A DNA stretch of 64,000 nt, taken from contig CAYWPA010000002.1 in assembly GCA_964459835.1 (NCBI GenBank), forward strand, positions 48,711 through 112,710, read 5' to 3'. Made by a program: the position numbers and the translations under genes. The notes below the pieces were generated by a model, which was given only the letters and a program-made list of their open reading frames with translations, was not told the DNA's origin and ran no database searches. Shown piece after piece: positions 7,009 to 62,528 of the stretch. Position 1 is the stretch's first letter. Every line of letters starts with the position of its first letter. Source of the DNA: an uncultured Methanosarcinales archaeon (lineage in GTDB: Archaea; Nanobdellota; Nanobdellia; Woesearchaeales; UBA12501).

Positions 7009-7146
7009 GTCAAGTTAAGTGCCAATGCTGCCAAGCAACGGTTTCGTCCATTGACACCGAGATTAGTGCAGGATTTCACTGCGTTCAATCCTGCTCCATA
7101 AGCGAACAGAGCGCGGCATTGGCATGAGACACGCTACTTGACTTAA
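7009..7146 (-). repeat. hairpin repeat element copy A (inverted orientation, 12-bp internal insertion)
   Basis: Termini GTCAAGTTAAGTGCCAATGCTGCC ... GCGCGGCATTGGCA..CTTGAC match copies B-D in reverse complement. Confidence 0.7.
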
Positions 7147-7196
7147 CCCTACCTTACGAAAACTATATAAATAAATTAGAAGCTTTTCTCCTTAAT

Positions 7197-7269
7197 GCCT
7201 CCGTAGCTTAGCAGGTAGAGCATTCGGCTGTTAACCGAAAGGTCGCCAGTTCGAGTCTGGCCGGAGGCG
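7197..7269 (+). tRNA. tRNA-Asn (GTT)
   Basis: Cloverleaf: acceptor GCCTCCG/CGGAGGC, D arm GCTT..GAGC, anticodon loop CTGTTAA, T loop TTCGAGT. Confidence 0.85.
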
Positions 7270-7282
7270 TTTTAGCTATAAC

Positions 7283-7434
7283 GGGCCCGTAGCTTAGCCT
7301 GGTGGAGCACACGACTGATAAACATTAAGCCGGGATTCTCTACGGAGGATGACGGCATTGAGAACCAAAATTCTCAATCCAAGGCTTGAAGTTCATAGAT
7401 CGTGAGGTCGGGAGTTCAAATCTCCTCGGGCCCA
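7283..7434 (+). tRNA. tRNA-Ile (GAT) with ~78-nt intron at position 37/38
   Basis: Acceptor GGGCCCG/CGGGCCC+A. Anticodon stem CACGA/TCGTG is separated by 7321..7398. Anticodon loop CTGATAA, T loop TTCAAAT. Confidence 0.75.
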
Positions 7435-7458
7435 TTCCTATTTCCACTATTCTTAAAA

Positions 7459-9015
7459 ATGGCAAAAAAACAAATAGAGCAAAAGTTTAGCAATGATGTT
7501 GTTAATCTTGCTTTTGATACAATAAGCCTTGGGAAGCAGGCCTTGGTTTTTCTAAATACAAAGCGCTCTGCAGAAAAAGCTGCTGAAGACATAAGCTTAA
7601 AGATAAAAGAAGGCAGCGCTGAAACAGAGGAGCTTTCAAATAAAATTCTAAAAGCATTATCAAGGCCGACATCGCAATGCGAAAGACTTGCAAGGTGTGT
7701 GAAGAAAGGCATAGCATTCCATCATGCTGGATTGGTGCAGAAGCAGAAAGAGATGATTGAAGATGCATTCAAGCAAAATAAGATTAAGATTATCTGCTGC
7801 ACCCCTACCCTTGCAGCCGGCGTTGATTTGCCTGCATTCAGGTCAATAATAAGAGACCTTAAAAGATACGGGCACAGGGGATTAGACTGGATTCCTGTTC
7901 TGGAGTACGAGCAGATGTCTGGAAGGGCCGGAAGGCCGAAGTATGATACATTCGGAGAGGCAATATGCATAGCAGGCCAGGAAAACGAGAAGGAAAGGAT
8001 AGTTGAAAGGTATATTGAAGGAGAGCCTGAAGAGATTTACTCTAAGCTGGCAGTAGAGCCAGTATTGAGAATGTATATCTTATCTTTAGTTGCAAGTGAG
8101 TTTGTAACGACAAAAAAGCAGCTTCTTGATTTCTTTAAAAAGACCTTCTGGGCGTACCAGTATGAAGATATTGAAAAATTGGAAGGAATAATAGATAAGA
8201 TGATAAATCTGCTTTCTGGATACAAATTTATTGAAGCAGATGAGAAAGAGTTTGCTTCTGCAAATGAAATAGGAAAAGAAAGCCTAAAAGCCACGCTGCT
8301 CGGGCAGAGGATTGCGCAGCTTTACATTGACCCATTGACAGCACACAATATTTTAAATGCATTGAAAAGGTCTTCTTCAAAGCAGGTAAATGAATTTTCT
8401 TTTTTGCAGATGGTCTCATATACTTTGGAATTGCGTCCGTTGCTGAGAATAAAAGTAAGGGAATACGACACTATTGAAAACGAGTTTACAAAGTTTGAGA
8501 GCAATTTAATAACACTTGAGCCTTCTTTGTACGATCCTGAGCATGACGAGTTTTTTGATTCTGTGAAGACTGCCTTGTTTTTCCATGACTGGATAGATGA
8601 AAATGATGAAGAGTTTCTTCTGAAGAAATATGATGTAAGGCCAGGTGAGATAAGGGTGAAGCTTGAAAGGGCTGAATGGCTGCTGTATGCTGCCGAGGAG
8701 ATGGCAAAGCTGCAGAAGATGCACAGCATAGTAAAAGAAATAATGAAAACAAGATTCAGGCTAAGGTATGGTGTAAGGGAAGAGCTGCTTACTCTGCTAA
8801 GGCTGGAAGGCATTGGAAGGGTAAGGGCAAGAAAGCTTTACAATCACAAGATAAAAGATATTGGAGATGTAAAAAAGGCAGATGTTTCTGTTTTGGCGCA
8901 GCTTCTTGGAAAGAACGTCGCAATAAAGGTAAAAAAGCAGGTTGGAGAGGATATAGAAAAGCTGAAAGTCCCTGAAAGAAAAAGAAAAGGGCAGCTCAGC
9001 CTGGGTGGCTACTGA
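7459..9015 (+). CDS. hel308: Hel308/Ski2-like DNA helicase, C-terminal portion only (RecA2-WH-ratchet-HhH); RecA1/Walker half absent
   Basis: Begins ~25 aa before motif IV (LVFLNTKRS). Motif V TPTLAAGVDLPA, motif VI MSGRAGRP, and a C-terminal HhH (GIGRVRARKLY) follow. No Walker A/DExH upstream, where the tRNA genes abut. Start set at the first ATG after tRNA-Ile. Confidence 0.8.
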   Translation: MAKKQIEQKFSNDVVNLAFDTISLGKQALVFLNTKRSAEKAAEDISLKIKEGSAETEELSNKILKALSRPTSQCERLARCVKKGIAFHHAGLVQKQKEMIEDAFKQNKIKIICCTPTLAAGVDLPAFRSIIRDLKRYGHRGLDWIPVLEYEQMSGRAGRPKYDTFGEAICIAGQENEKERIVERYIEGEPEEIYSKLAVEPVLRMYILSLVASEFVTTKKQLLDFFKKTFWAYQYEDIEKLEGIIDKMINLLSGYKFIEADEKEFASANEIGKESLKATLLGQRIAQLYIDPLTAHNILNALKRSSSKQVNEFSFLQMVSYTLELRPLLRIKVREYDTIENEFTKFESNLITLEPSLYDPEHDEFFDSVKTALFFHDWIDENDEEFLLKKYDVRPGEIRVKLERAEWLLYAAEEMAKLQKMHSIVKEIMKTRFRLRYGVREELLTLLRLEGIGRVRARKLYNHKIKDIGDVKKADVSVLAQLLGKNVAIKVKKQVGEDIEKLKVPERKRKGQLSLGGY

Positions 9016-9659
9016 TGCAGGAGATAATAACAAAAGACAATTCTCCAACAATAATGTCTTTGGAGTATTCTGAACCATACCGTTCCATTTCCGGAGCAAT
9101 GGAGGAATCTTTCAAGAAGTTTATAGGCCCGTGCAGGATAAAAGAATTTAAGGATGAAGTAAGTATTTTAGACATTGGCTTTGGCTTAGGCTATAATGTA
9201 TGCGCAGCTGTAGATGCTGTTTTGGAAGCAAATCCAAAATGCAATTTAGTTGTTTTTTCATTGGAAAAAGATAAAGAAATATTAAAAAAACTACAAAACC
9301 TAAATCCAGCTTTTAAAAATTACAATATGATAAAAGGGCTGGCAAAAAATCTTGAGTATAGAAAAGGCAATATAAATTTAAAGATTATTCTTGGCAATGC
9401 AACAGAAACAATAAAAAAAATAAATACAGATTTTGATGCAGTGTTTCTTGACCCTTTCTCCCCTCCGAAAAACCCTGAGTTATGGACAGAGGAATTTCTT
9501 AACGAGGTTGCCAAAAGAATGAAGAAAAGCGGGATTTTGGCGACCTACAGCTGCGCCAGGATAGTGAGGGAGAACATGAAAAAAGCAGGCCTTATGCCAG
9601 AGGACGGTCCATCCGTCGGAAGAAGGGCCCCTTCTACAATAGCAAGAAAAGCTTTATAA
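9015..9659 (+). CDS. MnmC/MnmD-like SAM-dependent tRNA methyltransferase (DUF752)
   Basis: DIGFGLGYN (SAM site) and FLDPFSPPKNPELWT...ILATYSCARIV..G closely parallel E. coli MnmC, DGFAPAKNPDMWT...LATFTSAGFVRRGL. Confidence 0.65.
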   Translation: MQEIITKDNSPTIMSLEYSEPYRSISGAMEESFKKFIGPCRIKEFKDEVSILDIGFGLGYNVCAAVDAVLEANPKCNLVVFSLEKDKEILKKLQNLNPAFKNYNMIKGLAKNLEYRKGNINLKIILGNATETIKKINTDFDAVFLDPFSPPKNPELWTEEFLNEVAKRMKKSGILATYSCARIVRENMKKAGLMPEDGPSVGRRAPSTIARKAL

Positions 9660-9660
9660 A
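9639..9660 (+). repeat. 22-bp direct repeat, left copy (ATAGCAAGAAAAGCTTTATAAA), includes the stop codon of the mnmC-like gene
   Basis: Perfect 22/22 match with 10651..10672. Confidence 0.85.
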
Positions 9661-9683
9661 ATATCAGAATATTAATAGTTAGT

Positions 9684-10550
9684 ATGAAGTTGAATTATAT
9701 TTCCCTATTGGCAATTTTGTTAATTGGTATGGTTTTTCTAAGCAGTTGTATGTCACAAGAATCACCAACAAAAGCTCCGACTACCACTCAACCATCTGAC
9801 ACTCCAGAAACAACACAACAAGAAACAACATCACAACAGCCAGATAAAGTTATTGACAAAGGAGACTTTAAAGTTGTATACGATTCGGTAGAAAACCCAG
9901 ATTTTATTGAATTAGAAAAAGTGCTTAAAGAATCAAAATTATTTGAAGAGGTAACAAACGAACTTAATAATAATTTTGCTTTACCTTATGATATTCTTGT
10001 TGTTTTTGAAGAATGCGGAGAAGAAAATGCGTTTTACGATTCGAATACTAAACAAATAACAATGTGTTATGAACTGATGGGTTACTTTGCCAAAGTATTT
10101 TATGATTATTCTGAAGATGATAATGACTTGGGAACGGCAATGCTAAATAGCATGTTTTTTGCATTCTATCATGAAGTTGGTCACATGATGGTTGATATAT
10201 ATGATTTACCTGCTACAGGCAATTCTGAAGATAATGCTGATCAAGTATCTACATTAATTCTTTTGAGTGACGAGGCTGATGGAGTAAGTACACTTTTGAA
10301 TGGGGCCAATTGGTTCTTTATAAAATCTGAAGAATCGGATATTGAAGAATCTATATTTTCAGACATTCACTCTCCCGATAAAAGGAGGTATTATAATCTC
10401 TTATGTTGGATTTATGGTAGTGACCCTGAAAACGGAGAATACATAATTACAGAATGGGAACTTCCAGAAGAAAGGGCTATTGGATGTGAAGAAGAATATA
10501 ATCAAATGTCTAATAGCTGGGATCGTTTGCTTTCTCCTTATTTCAAATGA
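9684..10550 (+). CDS. secreted/lipoprotein putative zinc metallopeptidase (HEVGH; DUF4344-like)
   Basis: Signal peptide with an LSSC lipobox, a T/Q/P-rich linker and an HEVGHMM HExxH motif. More AT-rich than its flanks and bracketed by the 22-bp direct repeats. Confidence 0.55.
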   Translation: MKLNYISLLAILLIGMVFLSSCMSQESPTKAPTTTQPSDTPETTQQETTSQQPDKVIDKGDFKVVYDSVENPDFIELEKVLKESKLFEEVTNELNNNFALPYDILVVFEECGEENAFYDSNTKQITMCYELMGYFAKVFYDYSEDDNDLGTAMLNSMFFAFYHEVGHMMVDIYDLPATGNSEDNADQVSTLILLSDEADGVSTLLNGANWFFIKSEESDIEESIFSDIHSPDKRRYYNLLCWIYGSDPENGEYIITEWELPEERAIGCEEEYNQMSNSWDRLLSPYFK

Positions 10551-10650
10551 ACCTATTCTTAAATTTGGCGGCAGCTCTCCATTATCAGCTTTATATGCAG
10601 TTATAGAGCCTCGCAAAACTGATGCTAACCTTTATTCTGGACAGAGCCTT

Positions 10651-10672
10651 ATAGCAAGAAAAGCTTTATAAA
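10651..10672 (+). repeat. 22-bp direct repeat, right copy
   Basis: Perfect repeat of 9639..9660. It creates a short ORF tail ...IARKAL* that duplicates the mnmC-like C-terminus. Confidence 0.85.
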
Positions 10673-10694
10673 CCTAGGGCAAGAGATATATACT

Positions 10695-11606
10695 ATGCAA
10701 GACAGGATCTTTTTTGAAAAGCCGGACTTGAACCTTCTCACAAAGCACTTTTCATGCGTGGATATGCACTTTCATACCAAGTATTCTGACACTTATACAA
10801 AAGTCCCCAATATAATAAAAAAAGCAGCAAAGAAAGGAGTAGGGGTTGCCATAACAGATCACAACGGAATAAATGGAAGCATAGAGGCATACAATAATAA
10901 GAAAGGCGTTATGGTTGTTCCTGCAATAGAGATTTCTGCAAAACAGGGCCCGCATATATTATTTTATTTTTACAGCATGAAAGAGCTGCAGGAGTTCTAT
11001 GAAAAAAAGATAAAGGATTTCAAGTCAAGAGCTCCCTACATGGCCACAAAGCTGACTGCAGAAGAAATTCTTGAAAGGGCTGAAGGATATAACTGCATAA
11101 GCTCTGCAGCACACCCTTCTTCAATAGGGCATTGGGACTTAAGGGCAAAGGTGGAAAAGGGAGAGATAAGCAGGGATGTTCTGAAAAAACTTGACTGCTT
11201 TGAGATGTTTAATGGCATGATGTCCAGGAAGATGAATGAGGAGTCCACAAGATGGGGTGTTGATCTTGGGAAGGGAATGACAGCAGGAAGCGACGGTCAC
11301 ACTCTGTTCTGCCTTGGAAGGACTGTATGCTACTCTGAAAGTGAAGGGGTAGACGGGTTCTTAGATGCCATAAGTAAGAAAAAGAACTATGCTATTGGAA
11401 AGGTTGCAAAGATAGGAAGCAGGGCATTGACTTACTCAAAGAACTTCGGAAAGCACTCTGTTTACGCAGGGCCTGCAATAGTCATACATTACAATCTTTA
11501 TATGAAAAACAACGTCGACAGGATGAAAGGAAAAATAAAAGAGAAAAGGGATGTTGTAGCGAACAATATAAAAGAAAATTTCTCCAGGATGAAAGGCAAG
11601 GTATGA
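10695..11606 (+). CDS. PHP-domain metal-dependent phosphoesterase
   Basis: DMHFHTKYSD...ITDHN His/Asp motifs of the PHP family. Stop overlaps the next gene start. Confidence 0.65.
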   Translation: MQDRIFFEKPDLNLLTKHFSCVDMHFHTKYSDTYTKVPNIIKKAAKKGVGVAITDHNGINGSIEAYNNKKGVMVVPAIEISAKQGPHILFYFYSMKELQEFYEKKIKDFKSRAPYMATKLTAEEILERAEGYNCISSAAHPSSIGHWDLRAKVEKGEISRDVLKKLDCFEMFNGMMSRKMNEESTRWGVDLGKGMTAGSDGHTLFCLGRTVCYSESEGVDGFLDAISKKKNYAIGKVAKIGSRALTYSKNFGKHSVYAGPAIVIHYNLYMKNNVDRMKGKIKEKRDVVANNIKENFSRMKGKV

Positions 11607-12115
11607 GAAAGGCAGATATTTTAACAACTGTAAGGCTTTTGCTTGCGCCTGTTTTTGCTTATTCTATCTACAAGCTAAACATTATTATTTCTTTACTTGT
11701 TCTTGTTTTTGCAGGCATAACTGATATTTTAGATGGCTATTTTGCAAGAAGAGAAAAGCCAACTCATTTTGGAATGTTGTATGACAGCGCTGTTGATAAA
11801 ATATTCATGCTGTTTGTTGTTGCTTCTATTGTTATGAAAAATTCACTTCCTCTTTATTTTATTCTTATGATTATGGTTAAGGACTTTTACCTTGGTATAA
11901 TGTATGGGATAAAGCATTTTATCGGCAGCAAAAAGAAAGTCATTCCGCCTACAGTGTATGGAAAATCCCTACTTTTCATCCAGTTTGTTGTTGTAATCAT
12001 GATGGTGCTCAAAATGCCTTATATTGTTCCTGCTGTGTGGTTTGTGTTTGTCTATGGGATATGCGTAGCTGCTGATTATACTGTAAAATTCTTCGGGCAG
12101 AAGGTTAAGATTTAG
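11603..12115 (+). CDS. CDP-alcohol phosphatidyltransferase (second copy; head-group synthase)
   Basis: DILDGYFARR...G..YDSAVDK motif with TM helices. Confidence 0.6.
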   Translation: MRKADILTTVRLLLAPVFAYSIYKLNIIISLLVLVFAGITDILDGYFARREKPTHFGMLYDSAVDKIFMLFVVASIVMKNSLPLYFILMIMVKDFYLGIMYGIKHFIGSKKKVIPPTVYGKSLLFIQFVVVIMMVLKMPYIVPAVWFVFVYGICVAADYTVKFFGQKVKI

Positions 12116-12118
12116 AAA

Positions 12119-13222
12119 TTATTTCCTTTGCTTTTTTGCTGTTTTATTCTTTTTCTTTCTGCTTGGCTTATTTTCTTCCTTTAAAATAATGCTTCCAGTA
12201 TCTATGAATCTTTTTACTTCTATCGCTCTTGCTCTTATTTTTTCATCTGGATGCCCAGCAAACAAACGATGCCAAGATATTCTGTCGCCGTAAGCCACTA
12301 CATAAGGAATTTTAAATTCATTTGGCATCAGCATTTCCCTTGCAGTTCCAGAAGCGCTGGCTGCTGCGCAAGCTTGATGAAGAAGGTTTAATCCATACAA
12401 TGCCATTCTTGCATGCTCTTGCTCACTATTTTTATTTCCAACTTCTCTATAATATGTACTAAGTACAGCATCAACATAAGTTGTGTACAAAGCAGTTATC
12501 CCTATCATGTTTCTTTCAGACGTAACATCGCTTTTCATGCCATTTTCCCATAAAGCTTTGTTTGCTTCAGAGGCTTTGGCAGCATACTCATGTGAAAGTG
12601 CAGATAAGTCACCAGTTAATAGTTCAGCATAAGTCATTGCAATGCTTTTCTGTGCATTCCATATATGGGAAGCATTTTCTGACTGCAAAGCATCCTCCAA
12701 AGATGCATCTGCATGTTTACGTGCAACCACTATATCCTCAAAATTACAACTCGTGAAATGTATGCTCAATGCAGCCATATTTGCTGCATGCTCGAATCTT
12801 GATCTTTTGCCATGCATCTCTTTGTTAAGACCATGGCGTAAGTTTCCAATTGTTTCAAAAACTTTAATTGTTTCTTCAAATGTTTCTAGTGCGCTTTCAG
12901 GATCTGCATTGTTGTGCAGATGGAAGAATCCATACTCTCCTACCAATAAATCAAGTTCAGGATATTTTGGTGTTTCTATTGATCCTGCCTTTTCAAAACA
13001 CCTTTCTACTTCAACACTATCTCTTGGTTTTCCAAAATATCTCCAGAAATCTCCTCTATAAGCCTCAAGAACTTTAACTTCTTCCGGCCTTGACTTTTTA
13101 ACTATTCTGCTAAGCCCACCCAATGCCTCTAAAGCTACTACTGACTTAGATGTTCCTTGGGCACGCGCAGCATCATATCTAGCCATTTGCTCGTTTACTT
13201 CTGCGCTTAAGCCAGGTATCAT
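12119..13222 (-). CDS. hypothetical alpha-helical protein (367 aa), compositionally atypical (Ala-rich)
   Basis: Complete ORF with no recognised motif. Amino-acid composition differs from the K/E/I-rich neighbours. Confidence 0.45.
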   Translation of the reverse strand: MIPGLSAEVNEQMARYDAARAQGTSKSVVALEALGGLSRIVKKSRPEEVKVLEAYRGDFWRYFGKPRDSVEVERCFEKAGSIETPKYPELDLLVGEYGFFHLHNNADPESALETFEETIKVFETIGNLRHGLNKEMHGKRSRFEHAANMAALSIHFTSCNFEDIVVARKHADASLEDALQSENASHIWNAQKSIAMTYAELLTGDLSALSHEYAAKASEANKALWENGMKSDVTSERNMIGITALYTTYVDAVLSTYYREVGNKNSEQEHARMALYGLNLLHQACAAASASGTAREMLMPNEFKIPYVVAYGDRISWHRLFAGHPDEKIRARAIEVKRFIDTGSIILKEENKPSRKKKNKTAKKQRK

Positions 13223-13330
13223 AAGAGATGGGATAAAGAGTTGGTATTTAAACTTTACTATTTTTACTATCTAATAGAGATGAAACTTCAGCAGAAACCT
13301 TAAATACAGCCTTGGTTATATTCTCTTTAT

Positions 13331-13402: not shown

Positions 13403-13405
13403 TAT

Positions 13406-14621: not shown

Positions 14622-16376
14622 TCATTTCTTTTTCTGCGAATAATACAACTCTTCAACTTCAGCAAGAGTAGCAATCTCCTTGACTGGCTTATCAAGGCGT
14701 AAATTCTTTACACGCGGAAATCGCAAGGCAAAGCCTGAAGTATAGGTTGGCGATTTCTGTATCTCTTCATAATTGACTTCAATCACGATCTTTGGCTTAA
14801 CATCAACATGCTTTCCTTTTTCCTTAACAATCAATGGCTTTAACACTTCTGTCATCTCCTGAAAGCTCACTCCATACTCTTCCAGCTCTTTTAATCCAGT
14901 GGAAACCTTGCCAACTTCAACTAATTCTCCATTATCTTGATCAAAGCATGCGACAGTATATGAAGAAAGCCAGCCTTTTCTCTTTCCTTCTCCCCAGTCA
15001 GCGCTTATAATGACTAAATCCAATGTTTCCATAACAGGCTTTACCTTAACTCCGAAGCCAACCCTTGAGCCTGGCTTATAGATTCCTTCAAGATTCTTGA
15101 CCATAATGCCTTCTTCCCCTTCTGCAAGGCTTTCTTTGTAGAACTTTTCAGCTTTCTTTGCATCATCTGTGACAAGCTGCTTTGCGTACCTTAATTTCTT
15201 GTCCTTGTTTGTTATTATTTTCTCTATCAGCTTTCTTCTTTCCTTAAAAGGTTTGTTCACATAGCTTTCACCATTAAAAGCAATAACATCAAAAACATTC
15301 ACCTCTACAGGAAACTTCTCAGCCATTTTTTCAATATCATATTTTCTTTTTATTCTTTGGGAAATGCTCTGGAAAGGAAGATACTTCTTTGTCTTTGGAT
15401 TAAAGCCAACAGCCTCTGAGTCAAGAATAAACTCTTTTCCTTCGATGTATTTTTTAGCACTCTCAACAACATCAGGAAACTGGGTTGTAACATCTTCAAA
15501 CCTTCTTGTAAAAAGCTTTATCTTACTGTCTGTCTTATGAATTTGAATCCTAAATCCATCATACTTAAATTCCAGTGCAGCAGGCTTCCCTACTTTTTCA
15601 AAAGCATCTTTAATATCGTTAGCCTTCTGGTACAGCATGACTTTTATCGGCCGGCCTATCTTCATCTCAATCTTTCCCAGGGCTTTGGCACCTTCTTTTG
15701 CCTTTATTACAATCTCACCAAAGTCATTTGAAACATTAAACGCTTTCTGAACAAGCTCTGAATATTCATTGTATTTTTCCCTGTCAGGGTTTATTGATTT
15801 TTTCTCCTTATCATAATTTAGATTTACTTCCTTTTCAAAAAACGCCCACACTATAGCATCCCTTAAAGTGCCGTCAGCAACACCTATTCTCAAATCTTCC
15901 AGGATTGTGCGTACGATATACTTTGCCTCTTTGGCAGCAGCGCTGCCAAGCAGCTCAGCAATCAATTTTATTTTTGCATCAACAGATCCAGCCCCTTCAA
16001 GCTCTGCAAGCTTTCTTATATTGTCAAAAACTTTCTTTACTGTTAATTCTTTTGAAGCAAGCGTTCTTTGCGATTTGCCTTTTGTAAGATTTTCAGCAAC
16101 TTCTCCCAAATCCCCTGTTTTCTTCCACTCTGTTTCAATTTTATTTGCATTTAATCCTGTTGCAACATTTATTGCCTTTATCACTATCTTTGAAGCAACT
16201 CCAATTTTTCTTTCATCGCTTGCAGGAAAAATCCTACCCTGCAGCAGCAAAGTTATGTGCGGAAGGTCTTCTGTTGGGACTTTTTTTAAGAACTCTGAAA
16301 TGTAATGCGTTTTTTCCAGCCTTTTTGTAGTAGAGTCAAGCTTTTCATACACCTCTACAAGATCAGCATACTTCAT
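14622..16376 (-). CDS. lig: ATP-dependent DNA ligase
   Basis: KYDG adenylation motif (EFKYDGFRIQIH) and a conserved ligase domain order. Start chosen at MKYADLVEVYEKL. Confidence 0.85.
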   Translation of the reverse strand: MKYADLVEVYEKLDSTTKRLEKTHYISEFLKKVPTEDLPHITLLLQGRIFPASDERKIGVASKIVIKAINVATGLNANKIETEWKKTGDLGEVAENLTKGKSQRTLASKELTVKKVFDNIRKLAELEGAGSVDAKIKLIAELLGSAAAKEAKYIVRTILEDLRIGVADGTLRDAIVWAFFEKEVNLNYDKEKKSINPDREKYNEYSELVQKAFNVSNDFGEIVIKAKEGAKALGKIEMKIGRPIKVMLYQKANDIKDAFEKVGKPAALEFKYDGFRIQIHKTDSKIKLFTRRFEDVTTQFPDVVESAKKYIEGKEFILDSEAVGFNPKTKKYLPFQSISQRIKRKYDIEKMAEKFPVEVNVFDVIAFNGESYVNKPFKERRKLIEKIITNKDKKLRYAKQLVTDDAKKAEKFYKESLAEGEEGIMVKNLEGIYKPGSRVGFGVKVKPVMETLDLVIISADWGEGKRKGWLSSYTVACFDQDNGELVEVGKVSTGLKELEEYGVSFQEMTEVLKPLIVKEKGKHVDVKPKIVIEVNYEEIQKSPTYTSGFALRFPRVKNLRLDKPVKEIATLAEVEELYYSQKKK

Positions 16377-16428
16377 ACAGCTTTGGTAAGAAACATGCTT
16401 TAAAAATTTTGCCACAAAACAAAGCATG

Positions 16429-16553
16429 GTCAACCTAAGCGCCAATGCCGCGCTCTGTTCGTATTTGGTTTTTGCTCTCGTAACCTATTATGTTTCGCAA
16501 TCGCTTCCTTTGTTTTGGCACGGCGCTTGGCGGCATTGGCGTCTTTCTTATCT
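16429..16553 (+). repeat. hairpin repeat element copy B
   Basis: GTCAACCTAAGCGCCAATGCCGCGCTCTGTTCG ... GGCGCTTGGCGGCATTGGCG with inverted termini. Sits in the divergent lig/nitroreductase intergenic region. Confidence 0.7.
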
Positions 16554-16602
16554 TAATCGAACAATAGAAATCTATATAAACAAACTGTGCTCTTTACGCA
16601 AT

Positions 16603-17718: not shown

Positions 17719-17749
17719 ATTTTTATTCTACATCATCTATTGGATTAAT

Positions 17750-32153: not shown

Positions 32154-32215
32154 TTCATATCACTGTAATTATATACTGTTATTTCAACTATAACAATGTT
32201 TCTATCCAAGGGTGC

Positions 32216-32344
32216 TGCCAACTTAAGTGCCAATGCTGCGCTCTGTTCGCTTCTTCATTTCTTTTTCGCATTCGAGGAACTCTCGCAATTGCTTCACCAT
32301 TTGAGCACGCCGCTTGGCAGCATTGGCACCTTGCTTGGCTTGAC
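32216..32344 (+). repeat. hairpin repeat element copy C
   Basis: TGCCAACTTAAGTGCCAATGCTGCGCTCTGTTCG ... CCGCTTGGCAGCATTGGCACCTTGCTTGGCTTGAC. Abuts the stop codon of 32346..34370. Confidence 0.7.
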
Positions 32345-32345
32345 C

Positions 32346-34370
32346 CTATCCAAGAATGTTAACAACAGGCTGCCTTTGCTTGTGGGGATACTCAATGATT
32401 AAGTCATTGTTGTTGCCGGCATCCTCTTTAATAAACAAAGCTCCATACTCTGTCAAGCCCATGTCTGTGCTGGAGTCAGCCTTTCCAAGCTTTATTGCAG
32501 ACTGGGAAGGAATATCAACATCAAGGACAGCATTTGAGGTAAACACAATGCTAACAGATTCATCACTGCTTCTCTCTCTTATATTTTTCTTTAAAGTTGT
32601 CAGAGTAATTGTCAAAGGAGAAGCTGGAGTCAATGAAGAGCCTAAATCCAGGATTCCTCCTCCTCTTGTAACTATATTTGCCTCATCTCCAAAGCTGTTG
32701 TCTCCTGTAAGGTCAACAGCTATTGGATTTCCAGAAGCATCTGAAATGAAAAAATTAAAAGAATCTCCGCTTATAGAAAAGCTTCCTTCTCCCAATACTC
32801 CTGCAGTTGAAGAAGGCAAATAAGCAGCTGTTATTGTTGATCCAGACTCATCATCAAACAGTATGGTGCTGCTTCCTGTATCGATTCCATCATACTTCAT
32901 AATGTTTGTTCTTCCATCATCTGTATTAGAGCTTGAAGCAGCAAAGAAGTCATTTTCTTCAATTACAAAGTCGGTATTTGAAGCCCCTTCTATGTAAATC
33001 AAATCCTGGTCTTCATCTCCATATTTAAATGTTACACTATTGTCCAGCAGAGGAATATCATATTCTTTTCCTGATGTGCTCTCAAACTGCAGCTTGTAAG
33101 CATCATCACCTGAAGAATCAAGCTTTATTATTGAAGTAGGGACATCTTCAAGACCTTCATACATAATATCCCATCCCCCTAGCATAGCACTGCCAATGTA
33201 ATCAGAAAGCTTTTCTCCGTCTTTCAGATAATATTCATCGCCTGCTTCAAACCTGTAAGTTATTGTGTTTAATGTATAAATATCTCCAGACCTGCTTCCT
33301 TTGATCCTTACTTTTCCTCCCTCAATTGTTTTCTGCCTTAATTTAACGCTTCTTTCAAATTCATTGTCAGCTGTGTTGCTGTCTTTGAAATTTATTTTTG
33401 ATGCTCCTACATACATCTCAATCAAATCCCTTCCATTTTCTCCTGCTTCTGTTGTTATTATCTCTCTAATTCCAACTTCGCTTCCGTCTGATAAAACATC
33501 AACCTCGCCTTCTTTTAGCTCAGATGTTGATTTTTCGTTTACTGTCAATTTTACGCTCTGTGCTGCATCGCTGACAATAGAAGCCCTTATGTTATATGTT
33601 GTTCCTCCTATTTTGTAAACTTTTGTCTCTCCTTCTCCTAAAATATCATGTATCTCTCCTGATATCAAGTCCAGCTCTACTCCATTATTGCTGTCTATCT
33701 TTGCCATTATAACAGCATAAGGCCTTCCAAGAATGTTTATTGTCTCGTCTTCCAGATCCACTAATCTTCCGTTGTCTATTTTGCTCTGCAACCCAGCTGC
33801 AAACTCTATTTCGTACTCAAAAATATCCTTGTCGTCAAAGAAAAGATAGTCTCTTGTCTCTCCGCCGTCTTTTTTAAAAACAGGTTTTCCTGACGATATT
33901 CCGTCGCTGTCAAACTTTAAGAATTGGGAATAAGGCGTTGCCTTTGTTTTTGTTGTTATTACTCCTCCCTGCAAAGCAGCCAAATTCGCCTGTGTCAAAA
34001 TCCTTACTTCTTCTCCTATTGATTCATTCAGCTGCAGGTTTTTAACCCTAAATACTCCCTGCTTGTTTACAGGCTCAATCGGAACTCCGCATTTTCCATC
34101 CTGGCAGCCGTAATGGCACGTTAATGCAACTTTTGTCCCCAACACACATCTCTGCAGAATATCTCCCTCGCAAATATCTTCTGTGCATTCAGCTTTTCTT
34201 TCTTCTGCTTCTTTTTTCGGCTCTTCTTCAGGCTTTTCTATTGTCTCGGGCCCTTTTTCTTCTTCAGCAGCCAGTGTTTCATTTATTTTATACTCCATAT
34301 CTTTTATTTTGCACCCAGAACTAAATATAATCAAAACAAAAACCATTAATATAAAAATTATTTTTTTCAT
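32346..34370 (-). CDS. large secreted Cys-rich/Gly-Asp-Ser-rich surface protein (674 aa)
   Basis: Signal peptide MKKIIFILMVFVLIIFSSGC, an N-terminal Cys cluster and a long beta-rich G/D/S/T region. Confidence 0.5.
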   Translation of the reverse strand: MKKIIFILMVFVLIIFSSGCKIKDMEYKINETLAAEEEKGPETIEKPEEEPKKEAEERKAECTEDICEGDILQRCVLGTKVALTCHYGCQDGKCGVPIEPVNKQGVFRVKNLQLNESIGEEVRILTQANLAALQGGVITTKTKATPYSQFLKFDSDGISSGKPVFKKDGGETRDYLFFDDKDIFEYEIEFAAGLQSKIDNGRLVDLEDETINILGRPYAVIMAKIDSNNGVELDLISGEIHDILGEGETKVYKIGGTTYNIRASIVSDAAQSVKLTVNEKSTSELKEGEVDVLSDGSEVGIREIITTEAGENGRDLIEMYVGASKINFKDSNTADNEFERSVKLRQKTIEGGKVRIKGSRSGDIYTLNTITYRFEAGDEYYLKDGEKLSDYIGSAMLGGWDIMYEGLEDVPTSIIKLDSSGDDAYKLQFESTSGKEYDIPLLDNSVTFKYGDEDQDLIYIEGASNTDFVIEENDFFAASSSNTDDGRTNIMKYDGIDTGSSTILFDDESGSTITAAYLPSSTAGVLGEGSFSISGDSFNFFISDASGNPIAVDLTGDNSFGDEANIVTRGGGILDLGSSLTPASPLTITLTTLKKNIRERSSDESVSIVFTSNAVLDVDIPSQSAIKLGKADSSTDMGLTEYGALFIKEDAGNNNDLIIEYPHKQRQPVVNILG

Positions 34371-44566: not shown

Positions 44567-47803
<3,237 letters not shown>

Positions 47804-55035: not shown

Positions 55036-55039
55036 TTTT

Positions 55040-56317: not shown

Positions 56318-56496
56318 TTCTTTCCACCTCTTTTTCCCCTTTCCTCAAACTCTACGTACCATCTTTGCGTTGCCTTGTCATACTTGAACACCACATCGTG
56401 CTTTTTGGAGGGATCCAGCGCAAAGAGGAGCGGCATAGGTATGGTTGTCTCAAAACTGCTTCCTCTCTTGTAAAGCCGCCTTCTTATCTCGGTCAT
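56314..56496 (-). CDS. AbrB/MazE-like swapped-hairpin small DNA-binding protein (60 aa)
   Basis: RLYKRGSSFETTIPMPL resembles the AbrB/SpoVT fold signature. Overlaps the beta-CASP start by ATGA. Confidence 0.4.
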   Translation of the reverse strand: MTEIRRRLYKRGSSFETTIPMPLLFALDPSKKHDVVFKYDKATQRWYVEFEERGKRGGKK

Positions 56497-56654
56497 TTTC
56501 TGGATACTTATATTTATCTTTATTTTTATACTATTCTATTTATAAATATTTCTATTCTTTTATATACTTAAGAAAATACTTATATATTAAGGATTATTTG
56601 GGAGTAGTATATTAAAGAAAGCTTTATTAACTAGGCTTTATTCCCCACATTAGC

Positions 56655-57338: not shown

Positions 57339-57380
57339 TTTTCAGAAACTATATAAACAAATCTTTTTTTCTTTTACTTT

Positions 57381-58193
57381 ATGAAACTAGCCATTATCGT
57401 TTCTACTAAAGACCCTGCAGGAATGAACATAAAGGAACGGCTTTTAGAGACAGGAAAATTCAAGGAAACAGCAGAGTGGAAAGGCCACAAAATCTACGAG
57501 TACAACAAAGACTGCCATCTTTACACAACAGATACTGATTCAATAAGGAATGAAGACATTGACAAGGAAATAAAAGCAGACTTTTTTCTTTTTGCAACAA
57601 AGCACAGCTCTTCTGCAGGCGTAAGATCATTAAGCGTGCATTCGATCGGAAACTGGGGCAAGGCAGAATATGGAGGAAAAGATAAATCATTGGTTTTTTC
57701 AGATGGAAATTTGTTAAGATATTCTTTATTTCTACTTGAAGAATTAAATAATTTAGAAATAGAAACAATCCAAGAAGTCACTCATCACGGCCCTTATTTA
57801 GAAAAGCCAACAATGTTCATTGAAATAGGAAGTGAAGAAAAAGGGTGGAAAGACAAGAAAGCAGCAGAAATTCTGGCAAAAGCAATAATCAATGTTGTTG
57901 AAACTTTGCAGCAAAATAAATTGCCGAAATTTACAATTGCTTTTGGCATTGGAGGCCTGCATCACTCCCCTATCTTTACTTCTATAATGCATAAAACTGA
58001 TTTAGCCTTCTCCCATATCTGCCCAAAATACAATCTTGAAAACTTGAGTATAGAACTAATAAAGGAGGCAATGGAAAAGGGAAAGGCAGAGTTAGTTGTT
58101 CTGGACTGGAAAGGCTTAGGGAAGGAAAAGCAGCGCATAGTGGAAATGTTAGATAAAAACAATATTACTTACAAAAGAAGCAAAGACCTTTAG
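57381..58193 (+). CDS. dtdA: archaeal D-aminoacyl-tRNA deacylase (DtdA)
   Basis: End-to-end similarity to the Pyrococcus DtdA pattern (KDPAGMNI..., HSIGNWGKAEYGGKD, THHGP, IAFGIGGLHHSP, VLDWKG). Confidence 0.7.
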   Translation: MKLAIIVSTKDPAGMNIKERLLETGKFKETAEWKGHKIYEYNKDCHLYTTDTDSIRNEDIDKEIKADFFLFATKHSSSAGVRSLSVHSIGNWGKAEYGGKDKSLVFSDGNLLRYSLFLLEELNNLEIETIQEVTHHGPYLEKPTMFIEIGSEEKGWKDKKAAEILAKAIINVVETLQQNKLPKFTIAFGIGGLHHSPIFTSIMHKTDLAFSHICPKYNLENLSIELIKEAMEKGKAELVVLDWKGLGKEKQRIVEMLDKNNITYKRSKDL

Positions 58194-58238
58194 ATTTTTG
58201 CGAGGCTTAATATTTAAAATTAATGTATTTTAAGAAAT

Positions 58239-58997
58239 TCAGGCTTTTTTCTCAGGGCTTGCAGCAGGCTTTCCTTCAACAGGTTTTCCCTCAACAGGCT
58301 TTGCTTCTACAGGCATTAATTCCTTGATGATCTGCATTGGCACTCCGGCTTCTAACATCTTTGCTTTGATAGCTGAAGCAGTCTTTCCTTCCATCTCCTT
58401 CAATATTGCTTTTCCTTTTGCCTCGTACTCAACTCTCTTTGCCTTTATGTCTTCCTCAAGCCTCTTCCTTTCTTCTTCCAATGCTTTAAGCTCTTCTGTT
58501 GAAAGTTCTGTCTTTCCTTTTTCTATCTTTTCCTTAAAAGCTCCCTTGTTGATATCAGCGATAGTTTCTCTTGCAGGCTTTCCCTCAACTAATATTCCCA
58601 TTGAGTCGCATGTCCCTATAATTTCCTTTACTTTTGAAAATTTGTCTTTTCCAAGCAAAGAATCAGCTTTCATTTTTGAAACTTTTATTATCTGCTCAAT
58701 TTTCAAATCAGCAACCTTTTCAAGCTTAGGGTTTGCAGCGCCTTTCTGTACATTTGCCTCTTTTTTTATCAAAGCTGATGTAGGCGGAGTTCCAACTGAT
58801 ATTGTGAAGCTTTTTGTTTCCTTGTCTATTGTTACTTTAACAGGCACCTGCATTCCCTTGAATTCCTGGGTTTTTTTGTTTATTTCTGTAACTACCTGCC
58901 CTATGTTTACTCCTAACGGCCCTAAAGCAGGCCCTAACGGAGGTGCTGCAGTAGCTTTTCCCCCTTCAATCAATGCATCTACGGTTTGAGTTGCCAT
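58239..58997 (-). CDS. rpl11: 50S ribosomal protein L11 with ~90-aa K/E/PVEGK-repeat C-terminal extension
   Basis: GGKATAAPPLGPALGPLGVNI and a conserved C-domain, then KAKRVEYEAKGK...PVEGKPVEGKPAASPEKKA. Confidence 0.8.
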   Translation of the reverse strand: MATQTVDALIEGGKATAAPPLGPALGPLGVNIGQVVTEINKKTQEFKGMQVPVKVTIDKETKSFTISVGTPPTSALIKKEANVQKGAANPKLEKVADLKIEQIIKVSKMKADSLLGKDKFSKVKEIIGTCDSMGILVEGKPARETIADINKGAFKEKIEKGKTELSTEELKALEEERKRLEEDIKAKRVEYEAKGKAILKEMEGKTASAIKAKMLEAGVPMQIIKELMPVEAKPVEGKPVEGKPAASPEKKA

Positions 58998-59066
58998 GTT
59001 TTGCAGGATTTAGAAGTAGTATTTAAAGGTTATTGCCATAGGGCATTGAAAATATTAAATTAATCT

Positions 59067-59100
59067 TAATTATTTTCTATATGGAAAATAAATAGTAAAA
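59067..59100. promoter_or_regulatory. conserved palindromic upstream motif, copy 4 (TAATTATTTTCTATATGGAAAATAAATAG)
   Basis: Lies 70-100 bp upstream of the rpl11 ATG. A separate TATA (RC of AGTAGTATTTAAAGG at 59013-59030) sits at about -25. Confidence 0.5.
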
Positions 59101-59128
59101 CTTCTTTGTCCTAATCGCCTATGGAAGC

Positions 59129-59356
59129 CTAACAGTGCTTCAGAAACTCTTCTCTGCTAATTCCTAAGTTTCTCTTTATAATTTTATTTAGGAGCCCGGG
59201 GCCAATTTCTTCGCCAGAATGGGAAGGGATAGTTGTTCTCCTCCCATCGGTATGTTTGTAAATCATATGGCTTCCTGTTGTATGGCTGTAAGTAAATCCA
59301 AATTTTTCCACTATTTTTGCTAGCTCCTTGCCTGTTAGCTTAGGCAATTTTGCCAA
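59129..59356 (-). CDS. hicA: HicA mRNA-interferase toxin
   Basis: KLTGKELAKIVEKFGF...GSHMIYKHTDGRRTTIPSHSGEEIGPGLLNKIIKRNLGI, HicA (YcfA) family. Confidence 0.75.
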   Translation of the reverse strand: MAKLPKLTGKELAKIVEKFGFTYSHTTGSHMIYKHTDGRRTTIPSHSGEEIGPGLLNKIIKRNLGISREEFLKHC

Positions 59357-59359
59357 GAA

Positions 59360-59569
59360 CTACACCTCTATTTGCTGTACACCGACAAACTGTTCAGATA
59401 TTTCAGGCTCTTCATTGCTTTCTAGATATGCTTTTATCGCCTCTTTTGTTCTTTCGATTAGTTTATCCATATTTTTAGCTTGAGTATGGCAGCCTGGCAA
59501 CCCGACTACCTCAGAAACAAAAAACCCTTCTTCATCTTTTTCAATGATGATAGTGTATTTTTTTGCCAT
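59360..59569 (-). CDS. hicB: HicB antitoxin (UPF0150)
   Basis: MAKKYTIIIEKDEEGFFVSEVVGLPGCHTQAKNMDKLIERTKEAIKAYLE. Start set at MAKKY (the ORF extends to 59611). Confidence 0.7.
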   Translation of the reverse strand: MAKKYTIIIEKDEEGFFVSEVVGLPGCHTQAKNMDKLIERTKEAIKAYLESNEEPEISEQFVGVQQIEV

Positions 59570-59614
59570 AGCAGCTAAATGCAAAGAATAGTATTTAAAT
59601 GTTGTTATCAAGAG

Positions 59615-60235
59615 TTAATCTTCTGCAGACTCTCCCCCTTCTCTCCTGATAACCCTGATGGCATCCATCTTCAGCGTTATAGGGATAGGAACTGCTGCTT
59701 CAAGAAGCTCAACAATGACTTCTTCCTTGCCCTTGTCAACTCTTGTAATCTTGCACTTCTCTCTCTTGAAAGGCCCTGAAATTATTTCAGCAATATCATT
59801 TTTCATTATGTTAACTTCCTGCTTGATAACCTCAAGCATATGGGCCATTTCCTTATATTCAACAGGCGCAGATAATATTCCGCGTGCATAAGGAATTCCA
59901 TGTGCAGCAATCTCTGCGTCCTCTTTTGTAGGTGTTTCCAAAAATATATATCCTCTCATTCCGTGAGGCCTTATTACAGAATAAACATTAAGCTTTTTCT
60001 TTGCTGCATTTGAGCTTATAAAATCCATAACCTGGTCTTCCCTGTTTGCAGTTGTTCTCAGTGCAAAAATCTTTGTTTCCTTCAAGCCTTCTTCTTCAGG
60101 CTTTTCTTCTTTCTTCTCAATCAAAGGCCCGATTTCTTCAAGCTCCTGGACTTCCATAGGCTTTATCTTGGGCAACTCAGCCTTTGGCTTTTCTTCCATC
60201 TTGAATTTGATTTCTTCTTTCTTTTGTTCTGCCAT
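59615..60235 (-). CDS. spt5: transcription elongation factor Spt5 (NusG homolog) with acidic N-terminal extension
   Basis: NGN domain (IFALRTTANREDQV), then KOW (GPFKREKCKITRVDKGKEEVIVEL). Confidence 0.8.
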   Translation of the reverse strand: MAEQKKEEIKFKMEEKPKAELPKIKPMEVQELEEIGPLIEKKEEKPEEEGLKETKIFALRTTANREDQVMDFISSNAAKKKLNVYSVIRPHGMRGYIFLETPTKEDAEIAAHGIPYARGILSAPVEYKEMAHMLEVIKQEVNIMKNDIAEIISGPFKREKCKITRVDKGKEEVIVELLEAAVPIPITLKMDAIRVIRREGGESAED

Positions 60236-60236
60236 C

Positions 60237-60425
60237 TTAAAATACCAGCTCCTTTATGAAAAATATCAAAAACCCGACAATCCCTATGATTGTCATTCCC
60301 AAGCCTGACACCTTGACAATTGTCTTGAACTCAAGCATTGAGGGCTTTTTTGTGACTTTCAGTACTCTAATGCACCCATCTACATACCTTTTGATCCTGT
60401 ATTGCCAAGAAATATTCCCTTCCAT
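60237..60425 (-). CDS. secE: preprotein translocase subunit SecE (Sec61 gamma)
   Basis: 62 aa with a single C-terminal TM helix and the conserved secE-nusG/spt5 gene order. Confidence 0.7.
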   Translation of the reverse strand: MEGNISWQYRIKRYVDGCIRVLKVTKKPSMLEFKTIVKVSGLGMTIIGIVGFLIFFIKELVF

Positions 60426-60426
60426 T

Positions 60427-61599
60427 TTAATCTAAAAATTCAATCCCCAACTCGTTCTGAATGCTTTCCTTTTTTTTCCCTAATCTTTTTGTATCTGGCC
60501 CAAAGATCTGGGTTGATTTTACCCCTGTGATTATCAAAAGCACCCTTATTATATTTGAAAGGTCCTCTGAAATCTGAGCTCCCCATATAACTCTCGCGTC
60601 TTCATCAAGCTTTTCTGTTATTGTTTCAACAATTTTTCTTGCTTCATCTAATGTCATGTCTGTTCCGCCTGTAATGTTGATCAATGCCCCATTAGCGCCT
60701 GAGACATCCACACTTAGCAATGGGTTTGATATTGCTTTTTCAACAGCTTCCACAGACCTGTTCTCTGTGTCGCTTTCTCCTACCCCTATCAAAGCAACTC
60801 CTCCATTGCCCATGACAGTCCTTATGTCAGCAAAGTCAAGGTTTACAAGGCCTGCTTTTGTTACAAGCTCTGCTATTCCCTTTACTGCATTTGTAAGTAT
60901 TTCATCTGCAATCTTAAAGGCGGTATGCAACGGAAGGTCAGGGGCAAGCTCAAGCAGCTTGTCGTTAGGGATAACTATCAAAGTATCCACAGCACTTTCC
61001 ATTTTTTCCAACCCAATAATTGCGTTTTCATATCTTCTTTTTCCTTCCATTGAGAAAGGCAAAGTTACAATTCCAACTGTCAATGCGCCCATTTTTTTTG
61101 AAAGCTCTGCAACAATGGGAGCTGAGCCTGTACCTGTTCCGCCTCCCAATCCACATGTTACAAAAACAATATCAGCGCCTTTCAAGGACTCTTTTATTTC
61201 TGCTTCCTGCTCTTTTGCAGCCTCTTCCCCTATTTTTGGTATGCTTCCTGCGCCCAATCCTTTTGTGGTTTCCTTTCCGATCAGTATTTTTTTGTCTGCG
61301 CTTGTATATAGCAAATCCTGGGCATCTGTATTGATGGCAATCGATTCAGCTCCTTTAATGCCGACTTCTGTTATCCTGTTGATCGTATTGTTTCCTCCTC
61401 CACCACATCCTACTACTTTTATCGTAGCCCTTTGCCTTGAAAGCAGCATCTCAAGCTCTGTATCGATATTGCTTGTTTTGCTGGCTTCCTCAACAACAGG
61501 CCTTCCGCCTACAGTAGGCCCTCTAGGAACCTGGTGATATGTTTCCTTATTTGGAGCTTCTTCAGAATGATTCTGCTGGTTTTGGTTCATGAAATCCAT
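60427..61599 (-). CDS. ftsZ: cell division GTPase FtsZ
   Basis: GCGGGGNN..., tubulin signature GGGTGTG, and T7 loop NLDFAD. Confidence 0.9.
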   Translation of the reverse strand: MDFMNQNQQNHSEEAPNKETYHQVPRGPTVGGRPVVEEASKTSNIDTELEMLLSRQRATIKVVGCGGGGNNTINRITEVGIKGAESIAINTDAQDLLYTSADKKILIGKETTKGLGAGSIPKIGEEAAKEQEAEIKESLKGADIVFVTCGLGGGTGTGSAPIVAELSKKMGALTVGIVTLPFSMEGKRRYENAIIGLEKMESAVDTLIVIPNDKLLELAPDLPLHTAFKIADEILTNAVKGIAELVTKAGLVNLDFADIRTVMGNGGVALIGVGESDTENRSVEAVEKAISNPLLSVDVSGANGALINITGGTDMTLDEARKIVETITEKLDEDARVIWGAQISEDLSNIIRVLLIITGVKSTQIFGPDTKRLGKKKESIQNELGIEFLD

Positions 61600-61642
61600 T
61601 TTCTCCTCGACAGTGATTTAATGATTATACCTCTATATAAAT

Positions 61643-62299
61643 TTATTGATTGAATTTAACAGCCTTTACAGACGGTATAATTTTTCTTACATAATCGCTA
61701 ATCTGCTCAACAATGGGATCTGGGATTTTTATTTTTTGCTTTAGCTTTAGTTCTGCAACCCCTTCTTTTATGATGACTTCAATGTCTTTTACCTGAAGCT
61801 TCAGCCTTAGCAAAGCCCTTACCTTTTCCTCATCGCTTGTGACTATCTTATTGGCCTTTACTTTATATACAATATCCAGTCCAGCTAACGGATGGTTGAA
61901 GTCAACTAATGTTCTTCCACCGCTCACATTTTTTACAACCCCAAGTATTCCATCAATATTGACCTGCAATCCAGGAACAGGCCTTATGTTTTCTTTTGTA
62001 AACTTGCCCGTTGAAATAAGCTGCACAAGCTTTGGGTTTTTCTTTCCAAATGCATTTTCCGGCTTAAGCTCTATTTCATAGCTTTTTCCTGTTTCCTTTC
62101 CCTCAAGCTCTATGTCCAGGCCCTTGACAAGCTGCTTCTCGCCTATGCAAACAACTACAGGCCCATATTCTGTGTTTTGCATTGACAGCTCTGCATCTTT
62201 TGCAACAGCCTTGTCTGTTGTATCAAATATAAACTTGTTGTCCTTTACAATGCCTGTATACTCAAGCTCTACAAAATCGCCTTTCTTTATTGCCGCCAT
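61643..62299 (-). CDS. FKBP-type peptidyl-prolyl cis-trans isomerase (long archaeal SlyD-like form)
   Basis: GDFVELEYTGIVKDNKFIFDTT... FKBP domain plus insert-in-flap and C-terminal domains. Confidence 0.8.
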   Translation of the reverse strand: MAAIKKGDFVELEYTGIVKDNKFIFDTTDKAVAKDAELSMQNTEYGPVVVCIGEKQLVKGLDIELEGKETGKSYEIELKPENAFGKKNPKLVQLISTGKFTKENIRPVPGLQVNIDGILGVVKNVSGGRTLVDFNHPLAGLDIVYKVKANKIVTSDEEKVRALLRLKLQVKDIEVIIKEGVAELKLKQKIKIPDPIVEQISDYVRKIIPSVKAVKFNQ

Positions 62300-62405
62300 C
62301 GGATTGTTGTTCTTGTTTTACCTTCAACTAGCTCATGATTTTAAGCATAGAAGAATATATACAGGGTTTTGCAGTAGTATTTAAAGCTTTTGCTTCTTAT
62401 GCAAT

Positions 62406-62528
62406 GTCAACCTAAGTGCCAATGCTGCGCTTTGTACGCTTCTGTCTTTGTTCTCGCAATCAAGGCACTTTCGCAATCGCTTCCTGTTATAAGGCACGGC
62501 GCTTGGCAGCATTGGCACCTTTCTTGAC
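62406..62528 (+). repeat. hairpin repeat element copy D
   Basis: GTCAACCTAAGTGCCAATGCTGCGCTTTGTACG ... GGCGCTTGGCAGCATTGGCACCTTTCTTGAC. Ends exactly at the cmk stop codon. Confidence 0.7.

Follow-up and report, generated by a model that had tools for sequence, protein, structure and literature searches.

A probable family of miniature inverted-repeat transposable elements with IS1-like ends in Woesearchaeota-like DNA

What are the four hairpin-forming repeats that lie scattered over a 64,000-nt stretch of archaeal DNA (hereafter the window), and does any known class of genetic element account for them? A sequence-only reading had listed the four (here A, B, C and D), held that no standard feature class explains them, and offered a choice between a mobile element resembling a miniature inverted-repeat transposable element (MITE), a repeat of the repetitive extragenic palindromic (REP) type and a family of structured non-coding RNAs (ncRNAs) of ~125 nt. 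The four are very probably copies of a MITE, that is, non-coding derivatives of a DDE-type insertion sequence (IS), because they have terminal inverted repeats and fixed-length (9-bp) duplications, are dispersed among unrelated genes and lack coding capacity. The MITE-like option is thereby borne out, and since MITEs are a standard class, the statement that none applies has to be withdrawn. We regard the repeats as ordinary mobile DNA, neither a new RNA nor a new class of element. An unexplained hairpin family thus becomes an annotated mobile element with exact boundaries, which averts its mis-annotation as ncRNA.

Copies, boundaries and target-site duplications

A family profile run over the window with nhmmer matched sites A–D only (E 1e-28 to 1e-34). 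All four copies are present where the sequence-only reading had placed them and align over their full length, while their true ends lie 5–6 nt further out. This correction derives from two related loci of the metagenome Ga0180432, L018 and L049, in which perfect 12-nt terminal inverted repeats (GGTGCAGTCAAC...GTTGACTGCACC) have 9-bp direct repeats directly outside; applied to the window, the same end geometry shifts the boundaries of A–D outward by 5–6 nt. The copies and their duplications are then placed as follows.

7003..7148, minus strand: probable MITE copy A, 146 nt, nhmmer E 1.7e-28
16423..16558, plus strand: probable MITE copy B, 136 nt, nhmmer E 5.7e-31
32211..32345, plus strand: probable MITE copy C, 135 nt, nhmmer E 2.1e-32
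62400..62534, plus strand: probable MITE copy D, 135 nt, nhmmer E 1.8e-34
7149..7157: target-site duplication of A, left copy (element orientation), GTAAGGTAG on the minus strand, matching 6994-7002 at 7/9 positions
6994..7002: target-site duplication of A, right copy, GTAAAGCAG on the minus strand
32202..32210: target-site duplication of C, left copy, CTATCCAAG, matching 32346-32354 at 9/9 positions
32346..32354: target-site duplication of C, right copy, CTATCCAAG (reverse complement CTTGGATAG)
62391..62399: target-site duplication of D, left copy, TGCTTCTTA, matching 62535-62543 at 7/9 positions
62535..62543: target-site duplication of D, right copy, TGTTTCTTC, inside the cmk coding sequence

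The register of these duplications was fixed beforehand by other copies, namely by L018 and L049 for copy A and by copy C for copy D; with a per-site match probability of 0.265, P(9/9) is ~6e-6 and P(>=7/9) is ~2e-3. A test for duplications around the GTCAA/TTGAC stem had been proposed, and at that boundary the comparison fails; moved 6 nt further out, it works. The relatives carry 9-bp duplications as well, perfect in L018 (ATTCTTTAG on both sides) and in a related element at a third locus, L055 (9/9, TGAGGCATT), and with 8/9 positions identical in L049 (CTTAAAAAG/ATTAAAAAG), and in all informative copies the length is 9 bp. Duplications of this kind would arise from a 9-bp staggered cut at insertion, made by a transposase that is encoded elsewhere and would move the element in trans. 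The perfect duplication of copy C documents a recent transposition in a small DPANN genome. Four clear duplications end in AG beside the left tip (CTATCCAAG, GTAAGGTAG, ATTCTTTAG and CTTAAAAAG), which may reflect a target preference.

The genes next to copies A–D, as judged by Pfam, are unrelated from one copy to the next, and the family is accordingly dispersed at unrelated loci. With a length of 135–146 nt none of the copies holds a transposase open reading frame (ORF), and such frames as exist are short and inconsistent among copies.

MITEs, including those of archaea, are well known, and the points of modest interest here are the IS1-like ends and the presence of two motifs in each end. 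To our knowledge, this particular MITE family has not been individually described. SM1-SM4 are MITEs of Sulfolobus solfataricus. With these, and with the elements of a recent archaeal census (PMC11602168), the present family shares its small size, non-coding nature, inverted ends, target duplications, intergenic location and presumed dependence on a resident IS. The same census, published in 2024, reported a Woesearchaeal genome in which the density of MITEs is very high (PMC11602168), and all 27 ISEScan-annotated IS families are reported to occur in the Nanobdellota (PMC13343696). Four copies in 64 kb amount to ~60 per Mb for a single family, a density that fits the published MITE richness of some DPANN genomes (PMC11602168). 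A bacterial parallel is offered by the Correia elements of Neisseria (CREE/NEMIS), which are similar in size (~100–155 bp), have long inverted ends and insert near genes; they differ in that they duplicate TA rather than 9 bp, reside in bacterial hosts and undergo an RNase III processing that is documented in bacteria. Correia elements are co-transcribed as hairpins and serve as a model for insertions that alter expression.

End architecture, folding and competing accounts

Each end of the element (GGTGCWGYCAAS...GCCAATGC) is an inverted repeat of ~35 nt, in which a short linker joins a 12-nt tip (GGTGCWGYCAAS) to an inner arm of strong conservation (GCCAATGCYGC...). The arm sequences GCCAATGCYGCGCT and GCTTGGCRGCATTGGC are invariant across the window copies and spaced 69–73 nt apart; GCCAATGCYGCGCT occurs four times exactly in the window, with one further chance match at two mismatches, where shuffled sequences lead one to expect 0.57 (at no more than two mismatches). 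The tips are best preserved in copy C (GGTGCTGCCAAC ... GGCTTGACC), B and D have a variant left tip in common in the alignment, and copy A has a left linker 7 nt longer, which marks a subfamily common to A, L018 and L049.

The terminal stems fold as the sequence-only reading described, in the individual copies and in the consensus alike: the 12-nt tips and the arms (11–13 bp) pair in all copies, perfectly so in L018 and L049. A 13-nt core had been called perfectly self-complementary, which holds for C and D, while B has a compensated C-G pair and A one C/A mismatch. Compensatory stem changes, which had been suggested as a check, are found as T-A to C-G exchanges in B, L018 and L049.

Could the elements then be an independently transcribed, structured ncRNA family of ~125 nt? 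Their intergenic location and stable predicted hairpins would suit such a family, and a long hairpin closed by the two arms is predicted on both strands of every copy, with energies of -37 to -49 kcal/mol and z-scores of -2 to -5. That both strands fold equally well is, however, a point against an RNA gene, and the consensus structure that RNAalifold derives from six copies consists of the pairing of the inverted ends only (12+5 bp), all three of its double-change pairs being inside those ends. No interior helix is conserved, and among the four window copies the interior varies at 45 of 61 columns. Nor does Rfam lend support, as only tRNAs exceed the gathering threshold in the window and permissive scans returned only noise (E >= 0.18); the 9-bp duplications and the IS-like termini are left unaccounted for by an RNA-gene model. 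We therefore consider an ncRNA family very improbable and the hairpin potential a by-product of the inverted ends. A K-turn or a bulge-helix-bulge motif at the arm junction was also considered and proved a poor fit by inspection.

The REP-like option fares no better. A REP or REPIN repeat spread by a RAYT (an IS200-like tyrosine transposase) would resemble the family in its pair of conserved inverted short arms around a variable spacer, and the clusters and tandem arrays found in one other assembly (see below) recall those sometimes formed by REP, REPIN and BIME repeats. Such repeats are palindromic singly and make no target duplication, whereas single arms of the present family are not palindromic on reading their sequence, 9-bp target duplications are present, and the GGTG termini are of the DDE type. 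With no Y1/RAYT-like gene among the Pfam matches of the window, this origin can be given hardly any credence.

Another alternative is suggested by the distribution of sequence variation. In the four window copies 2 of 30 arm columns are variable (together a compensated Y/R pair), as opposed to 14 of 24 in the tips and 18 of 21 in the linkers, and the contrast between arms and tips is significant (Fisher p = 5e-5). The elements, or at least their inner arms, might on this evidence have been taken over by the host, with selection maintaining the arms either to bind a protein or, as an RNA hairpin, to influence the stability, termination or processing of neighbouring transcripts. Beyond the near-invariance of the arms against variable tips, linkers and interior, further observations can be cited in favour: a second Woesearchaeota-like assembly has the arms in tipless tandem, followed by arm-like repeats with a period of 24 nt; stems show compensated changes in B, L018 and L049 (T-A to C-G) and at four positions in the related contig L004 (2544-2640); and all four window copies lie no more than ~60 nt from a promoter or stop codon. 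Yet inverted repeats co-vary in any transposon lineage without an RNA function, no oligo-T tract follows the hairpin in C and D on reading their sequence, and the orientation relative to neighbouring genes is inconsistent among copies. Furthermore, some at least of the variation in the tips came down from source copies and did not arise by decay in place, because B and D have the same variant left tip and because the first 24 nt of the end, half of the arm included, are constant between genera (L055), as would be expected of a transposase-binding end. We deem a host function of this kind unlikely. A little less probable still is the narrower claim that selection maintains the arms as a module of Woesearchaeota-like genomes, which persists in immobile, tip-altered copies and has been amplified without tips in tandem; if true, it would point to a host or element protein that binds the arms (e.g. 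a domesticated IS1 InsA-like repressor) or to a function of the RNA hairpin beside promoters and stop codons.

The MITE interpretation has its own difficulties, which need to be set against the evidence given above. Copy B has flanks that match at 4/9 positions only, with no recognisable duplication. In A, B and D the six outermost nt of the tips deviate from the GGTGC consensus, in contrast to arms that hardly vary, and this difference is not what simple neutral decay of dead copies would predict. A comparison through cmk homologues yielded no empty site, the nearest homologues being 63–64% identical and too distant for the purpose; the closest genome, at only 64% identity in cmk, has another gene between cmk and FKBP, where copy D resides in the window. 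Finally, no autonomous partner with matching ends was found in the window or in the related loci. Pfam detected no transposase of any family among ~68 ORFs of the window and 10 ORFs of the related loci, and E. coli InsA and InsB had no similarity to either in tblastn searches.

One further candidate was rejected, a small protein or TAG read-through (possibly involving pyrrolysine): the peptides GANAAKRRA... and ...RTERSIGT* recur only through the conservation of the arms, their lengths and starts are inconsistent, and copy B is without a start codon.

The candidate mobilising transposase

If the copies are MITEs, which transposase moved them? The comparison of ends points, with moderate confidence, to a transposase of the IS1 family acting in trans as the likely mobiliser. 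The IS1 inverted repeat was checked as a 39-mer, which was found in 4958 of 5426 E. coli genomes and which abuts an annotated IS1A transposase gene; in an annotated genome the two ends of IS1A read GGTGATGCTGCCAACTTACTGAT and GGTAATGACTCCAACTTATTGAT. The left tip of copy C (GGTGCTGCCAACTTAAGT) has an exact 13-mer, TGCTGCCAACTTA, in common with the first of these, a coincidence with a chance of ~3e-6 per pair of ends and of ~5e-5 over the 14 ends compared. L018 has CAACTTA in common with both IS1A ends, and IS1A and the element both start with GGTG. The left ends of C and L055 (GGTGCTG) are of the IS1 end type GGnnnTG, to which the GGTGCAG start of L018 and L049 is an inexact fit. The 9-bp duplications lie within the 8–9 bp expected of the IS1 family, and IS1 typically makes duplications of 9 bp. 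Even the coding arrangement has an echo in the element, as the InsB stop codon of IS1A is the TTA of CCAACTTA and the MITE frame ...RTERSIGT* stops at the equivalent TTA.

The resemblance extends to the inner arms. Read inward, the right arm GCCAATGCTGCCAAG contains ATGCTGCCAA, which corresponds to positions 5–14 of the IS1A inverted repeat and is identical to the tip motif TGCAGTCAAG at 8/10 positions. Each end thus resembles a direct repeat of an IS1-like motif, with the two copies at a distance of ~22 nt, and from this duplication of motifs we infer that the arm may be a second, subterminal binding site for the transposase.

Two features of the ends speak against IS1. The 13-mer aligns only with an offset of 3 nt, the shared block being nearer the end in the element than in IS1A, and the L055 tips (GGTGCTGT...) match seven of the first eight nt of another inverted repeat, that of ISApl4. 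The element also differs from IS1 of E. coli in its longer inverted repeats (~35 nt) with their second inner motif, and IS1 of E. coli is bacterial, whereas the element is hosted by a DPANN archaeon with no IS1-type transposase in the window or the related loci. Tblastn searches of plasmids with InsB gave matches saturated by enterobacterial IS1, and for ISMhu11 and ISC1173 no papers were found in the literature.

The match to ISApl4 brings in a different mobiliser, a transposase of the IS1595 family (IS1016/Merlin-like) or another DDE transposase that makes 8–9-bp duplications. ISApl4 belongs to the IS1016 subgroup of IS1595, has the inverted repeat GGGGCTGTACTAGA, and is part of a subgroup with direct repeats of 7–9 bp (PMC12561309). 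In its start, of the form GG(G/T)GCTGT, and in a duplication length compatible with the 7–9-bp range, the present family resembles the IS1016 subgroup and the eukaryotic Merlin elements. The similarity to IS1016, however, ends after 8 nt and the longest common word is 4–5 nt, as against 13 nt and the arrangement of CCAACTTA and stop codon that IS1A and the element have in common. ISApl4 has 14-bp inverted repeats and makes 8-bp duplications, whereas the clear duplications here are all of 9 bp (PMC12561309). A mobiliser other than IS1 is conceivable on these grounds and remains the more doubtful proposal; an IS1-family enzyme is the one that we prefer.

Host, relatives and neighbouring genes

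The genes of the window are archaeal in character and include those for CDP-archaeol synthase, class I LysRS, PTH2, L35Ae, Spt5, RNA polymerase subunit L, FtsZ and an ATP-dependent DNA ligase; an intron-containing tRNA is in keeping with this. Among named homologues, those closest to its cmk come from Woesearchaeota and Nanoarchaeota (56–64% identity), and on these grounds the host is a DPANN (Woesearchaeota-like) archaeon without a close relative in the databases. Fragmentary Logan contigs of run ERR3478686 hold the same DNA. The nearest available relative is L055 (GCA_046484055.1, JAWOBY010000025.1), with a cmk that is 64% identical and the same order of cmk, FKBP, FtsZ and Spt5. At 9131-9344 it carries the related element of 214 bp, the first 24 nt of which are identical (GGTGCTGTCAAGTTAAGTGCCATTG) before a different continuation sets in, and which is flanked by the perfect duplication given above. 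With its different inner repeat (GTGCCATTGAGGCC) it represents a sister-family MITE.

Scanning reference genomes (one per species) with both arms retrieved four short contigs of a single metagenome-assembled genome (MAG), L001-L004. A metagenome scan with both arms gave no match, and one with a single arm gave 45 loci, namely the two true relatives L018 and L049 and 43 chance matches in GC-rich bacteria. The viral scan found only two unrelated inverted repeats, and blastn of copy C against plasmids and phages gave no match.

The MAG copies have no tips. Their units, ~105–125 nt long and arrayed in tandem, have the arms of the element around another conserved interior and are succeeded by arm-like repeats with a period of 24 nt; they are located at L001 2630-2945, L002 4040-4211, L003 1810-2008, and L004 1-230 and 2539-2644; within the last of these, at 2544-2640, four stem positions are fully compensated. 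All four contigs start or stop inside tipless units, and these breaks suggest a high copy number in that MAG. L049 has a second, tipless copy on the minus strand (3338-3460), in which an arm2-like block directly adjoins arm1, and a solitary arm2-like block occurs at L018 524-545.

The MAG is titled 'uncultured Methanosarcinales archaeon'. On L001 (CAZLVM010000028.1) the gene at 3448-4899 encodes a phosphomannomutase with named homologues that are all from Woesearchaeota, the closest at 59–62% identity, and by this indication a wrong label or contamination is probable for the L001 contig or for the bin as a whole. Given the Woesearchaeota affinity of that gene, the family would so far be confined to Woesearchaeota-like DNA. 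The family could be of practical use as a marker for assembly breaks and binning errors, because its sole reference-genome match is filed under Methanosarcinales and looks Woesearchaeal.

How do the insertions relate to the genes around them? The copies had been described as strictly intergenic, which cannot be upheld, as cmk has its stop and the two codons before it inside D, and the stop of a 674-aa gene is situated inside the duplication of C. They had also been described as flush with gene boundaries, from which A (48 nt from tRNA-Asn) and B (~45 nt from start codons) are set apart. The flush appearance is due to the duplications, in that the duplication of C holds the TAG stop and D is in frame in the end of cmk. 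Insertion would thus have taken place beside promoters in the case of A and B and at gene 3' ends in the case of C and D.

Copy A ends 48 nt upstream of tRNA-Asn (7196-7270), or ~39 nt when the duplication is counted, and its duplication is ~six nt upstream of the TATA-like box of that tRNA. Copy B is placed between the divergent genes for DNA ligase (minus strand) and nitroreductase (plus strand), ~45 nt from each start codon and between their core promoters; the start codons are likely the ATGs at 16376 (ligase) and 16603 (nitroreductase), as deduced from the positions of the Pfam domains and the sequence.

Copy C adjoins the stop of the 674-aa gene, and CTTGGATAG encodes Leu-Gly-TAG, the last two codons and stop of this gene. 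The translation ends ...NILG*, and beyond the element there is a second ending, ...STLG*. The 674-aa protein is unchanged, because the duplication regenerates its stop codon. Copy D, between cmk and FKBP (Pfam), adds up with its duplication to 144 nt or 48 codons and is in frame within cmk. The end of cmk, two codons and the TAG stop (62528-62530), is provided by the right tip of D (62523-62534), and in that frame this TAG is the only stop inside the element. The gene now ends ...KKHI*, and ...KKQKL* persists past the element; the latter would be the ancestral end, of which D would have replaced the last three codons, the C-terminal tails of cmk homologues being too highly variable to confirm it. 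Two odd gene ends are in this manner explained, a cmk C-terminus rewritten by insertion and a duplicated stop of the 674-aa gene.

A consistent orientation relative to the flanking genes, seen in 3/3 informative window copies, is broken by L018 and is not significant. In L049 no more than nine nt separate the inserted MITE (1540-1686) from the 3' end of tRNA-His (1460-1531); taken together with the adjacency of copy A to tRNA-Asn, this may indicate a preference for the AT-rich DNA that flanks tRNAs.

A few observations concern other features of the window. At 7283-7434, 13 nt downstream of tRNA-Asn, there is an intron-containing tRNA that reads as tRNA-Ile(GAU), with an ~80-nt intron after the anticodon loop; it scores 50.7 bits in Rfam and was missed by ARAGORN. 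The ORF at 7402-9015 encodes a Hel308/Ski2-like archaeal helicase, the Pfam matches of which start with Helicase_C at residue 94. It is without a DEAD/RecA1 domain, for which the tRNAs upstream leave no room, and may represent a truncated or split gene. The DNA gyrase B gene at 44633-47803 contains an intein (Intein_splicing, residues 431-854). A 94-aa ORF at 19151-19435 matches only the first 58 of 302 positions of a diphthamide-synthase model, has a 56%-identical stretch at L049 734-1021, and may thus encode a short conserved protein instead of being a pseudogene.

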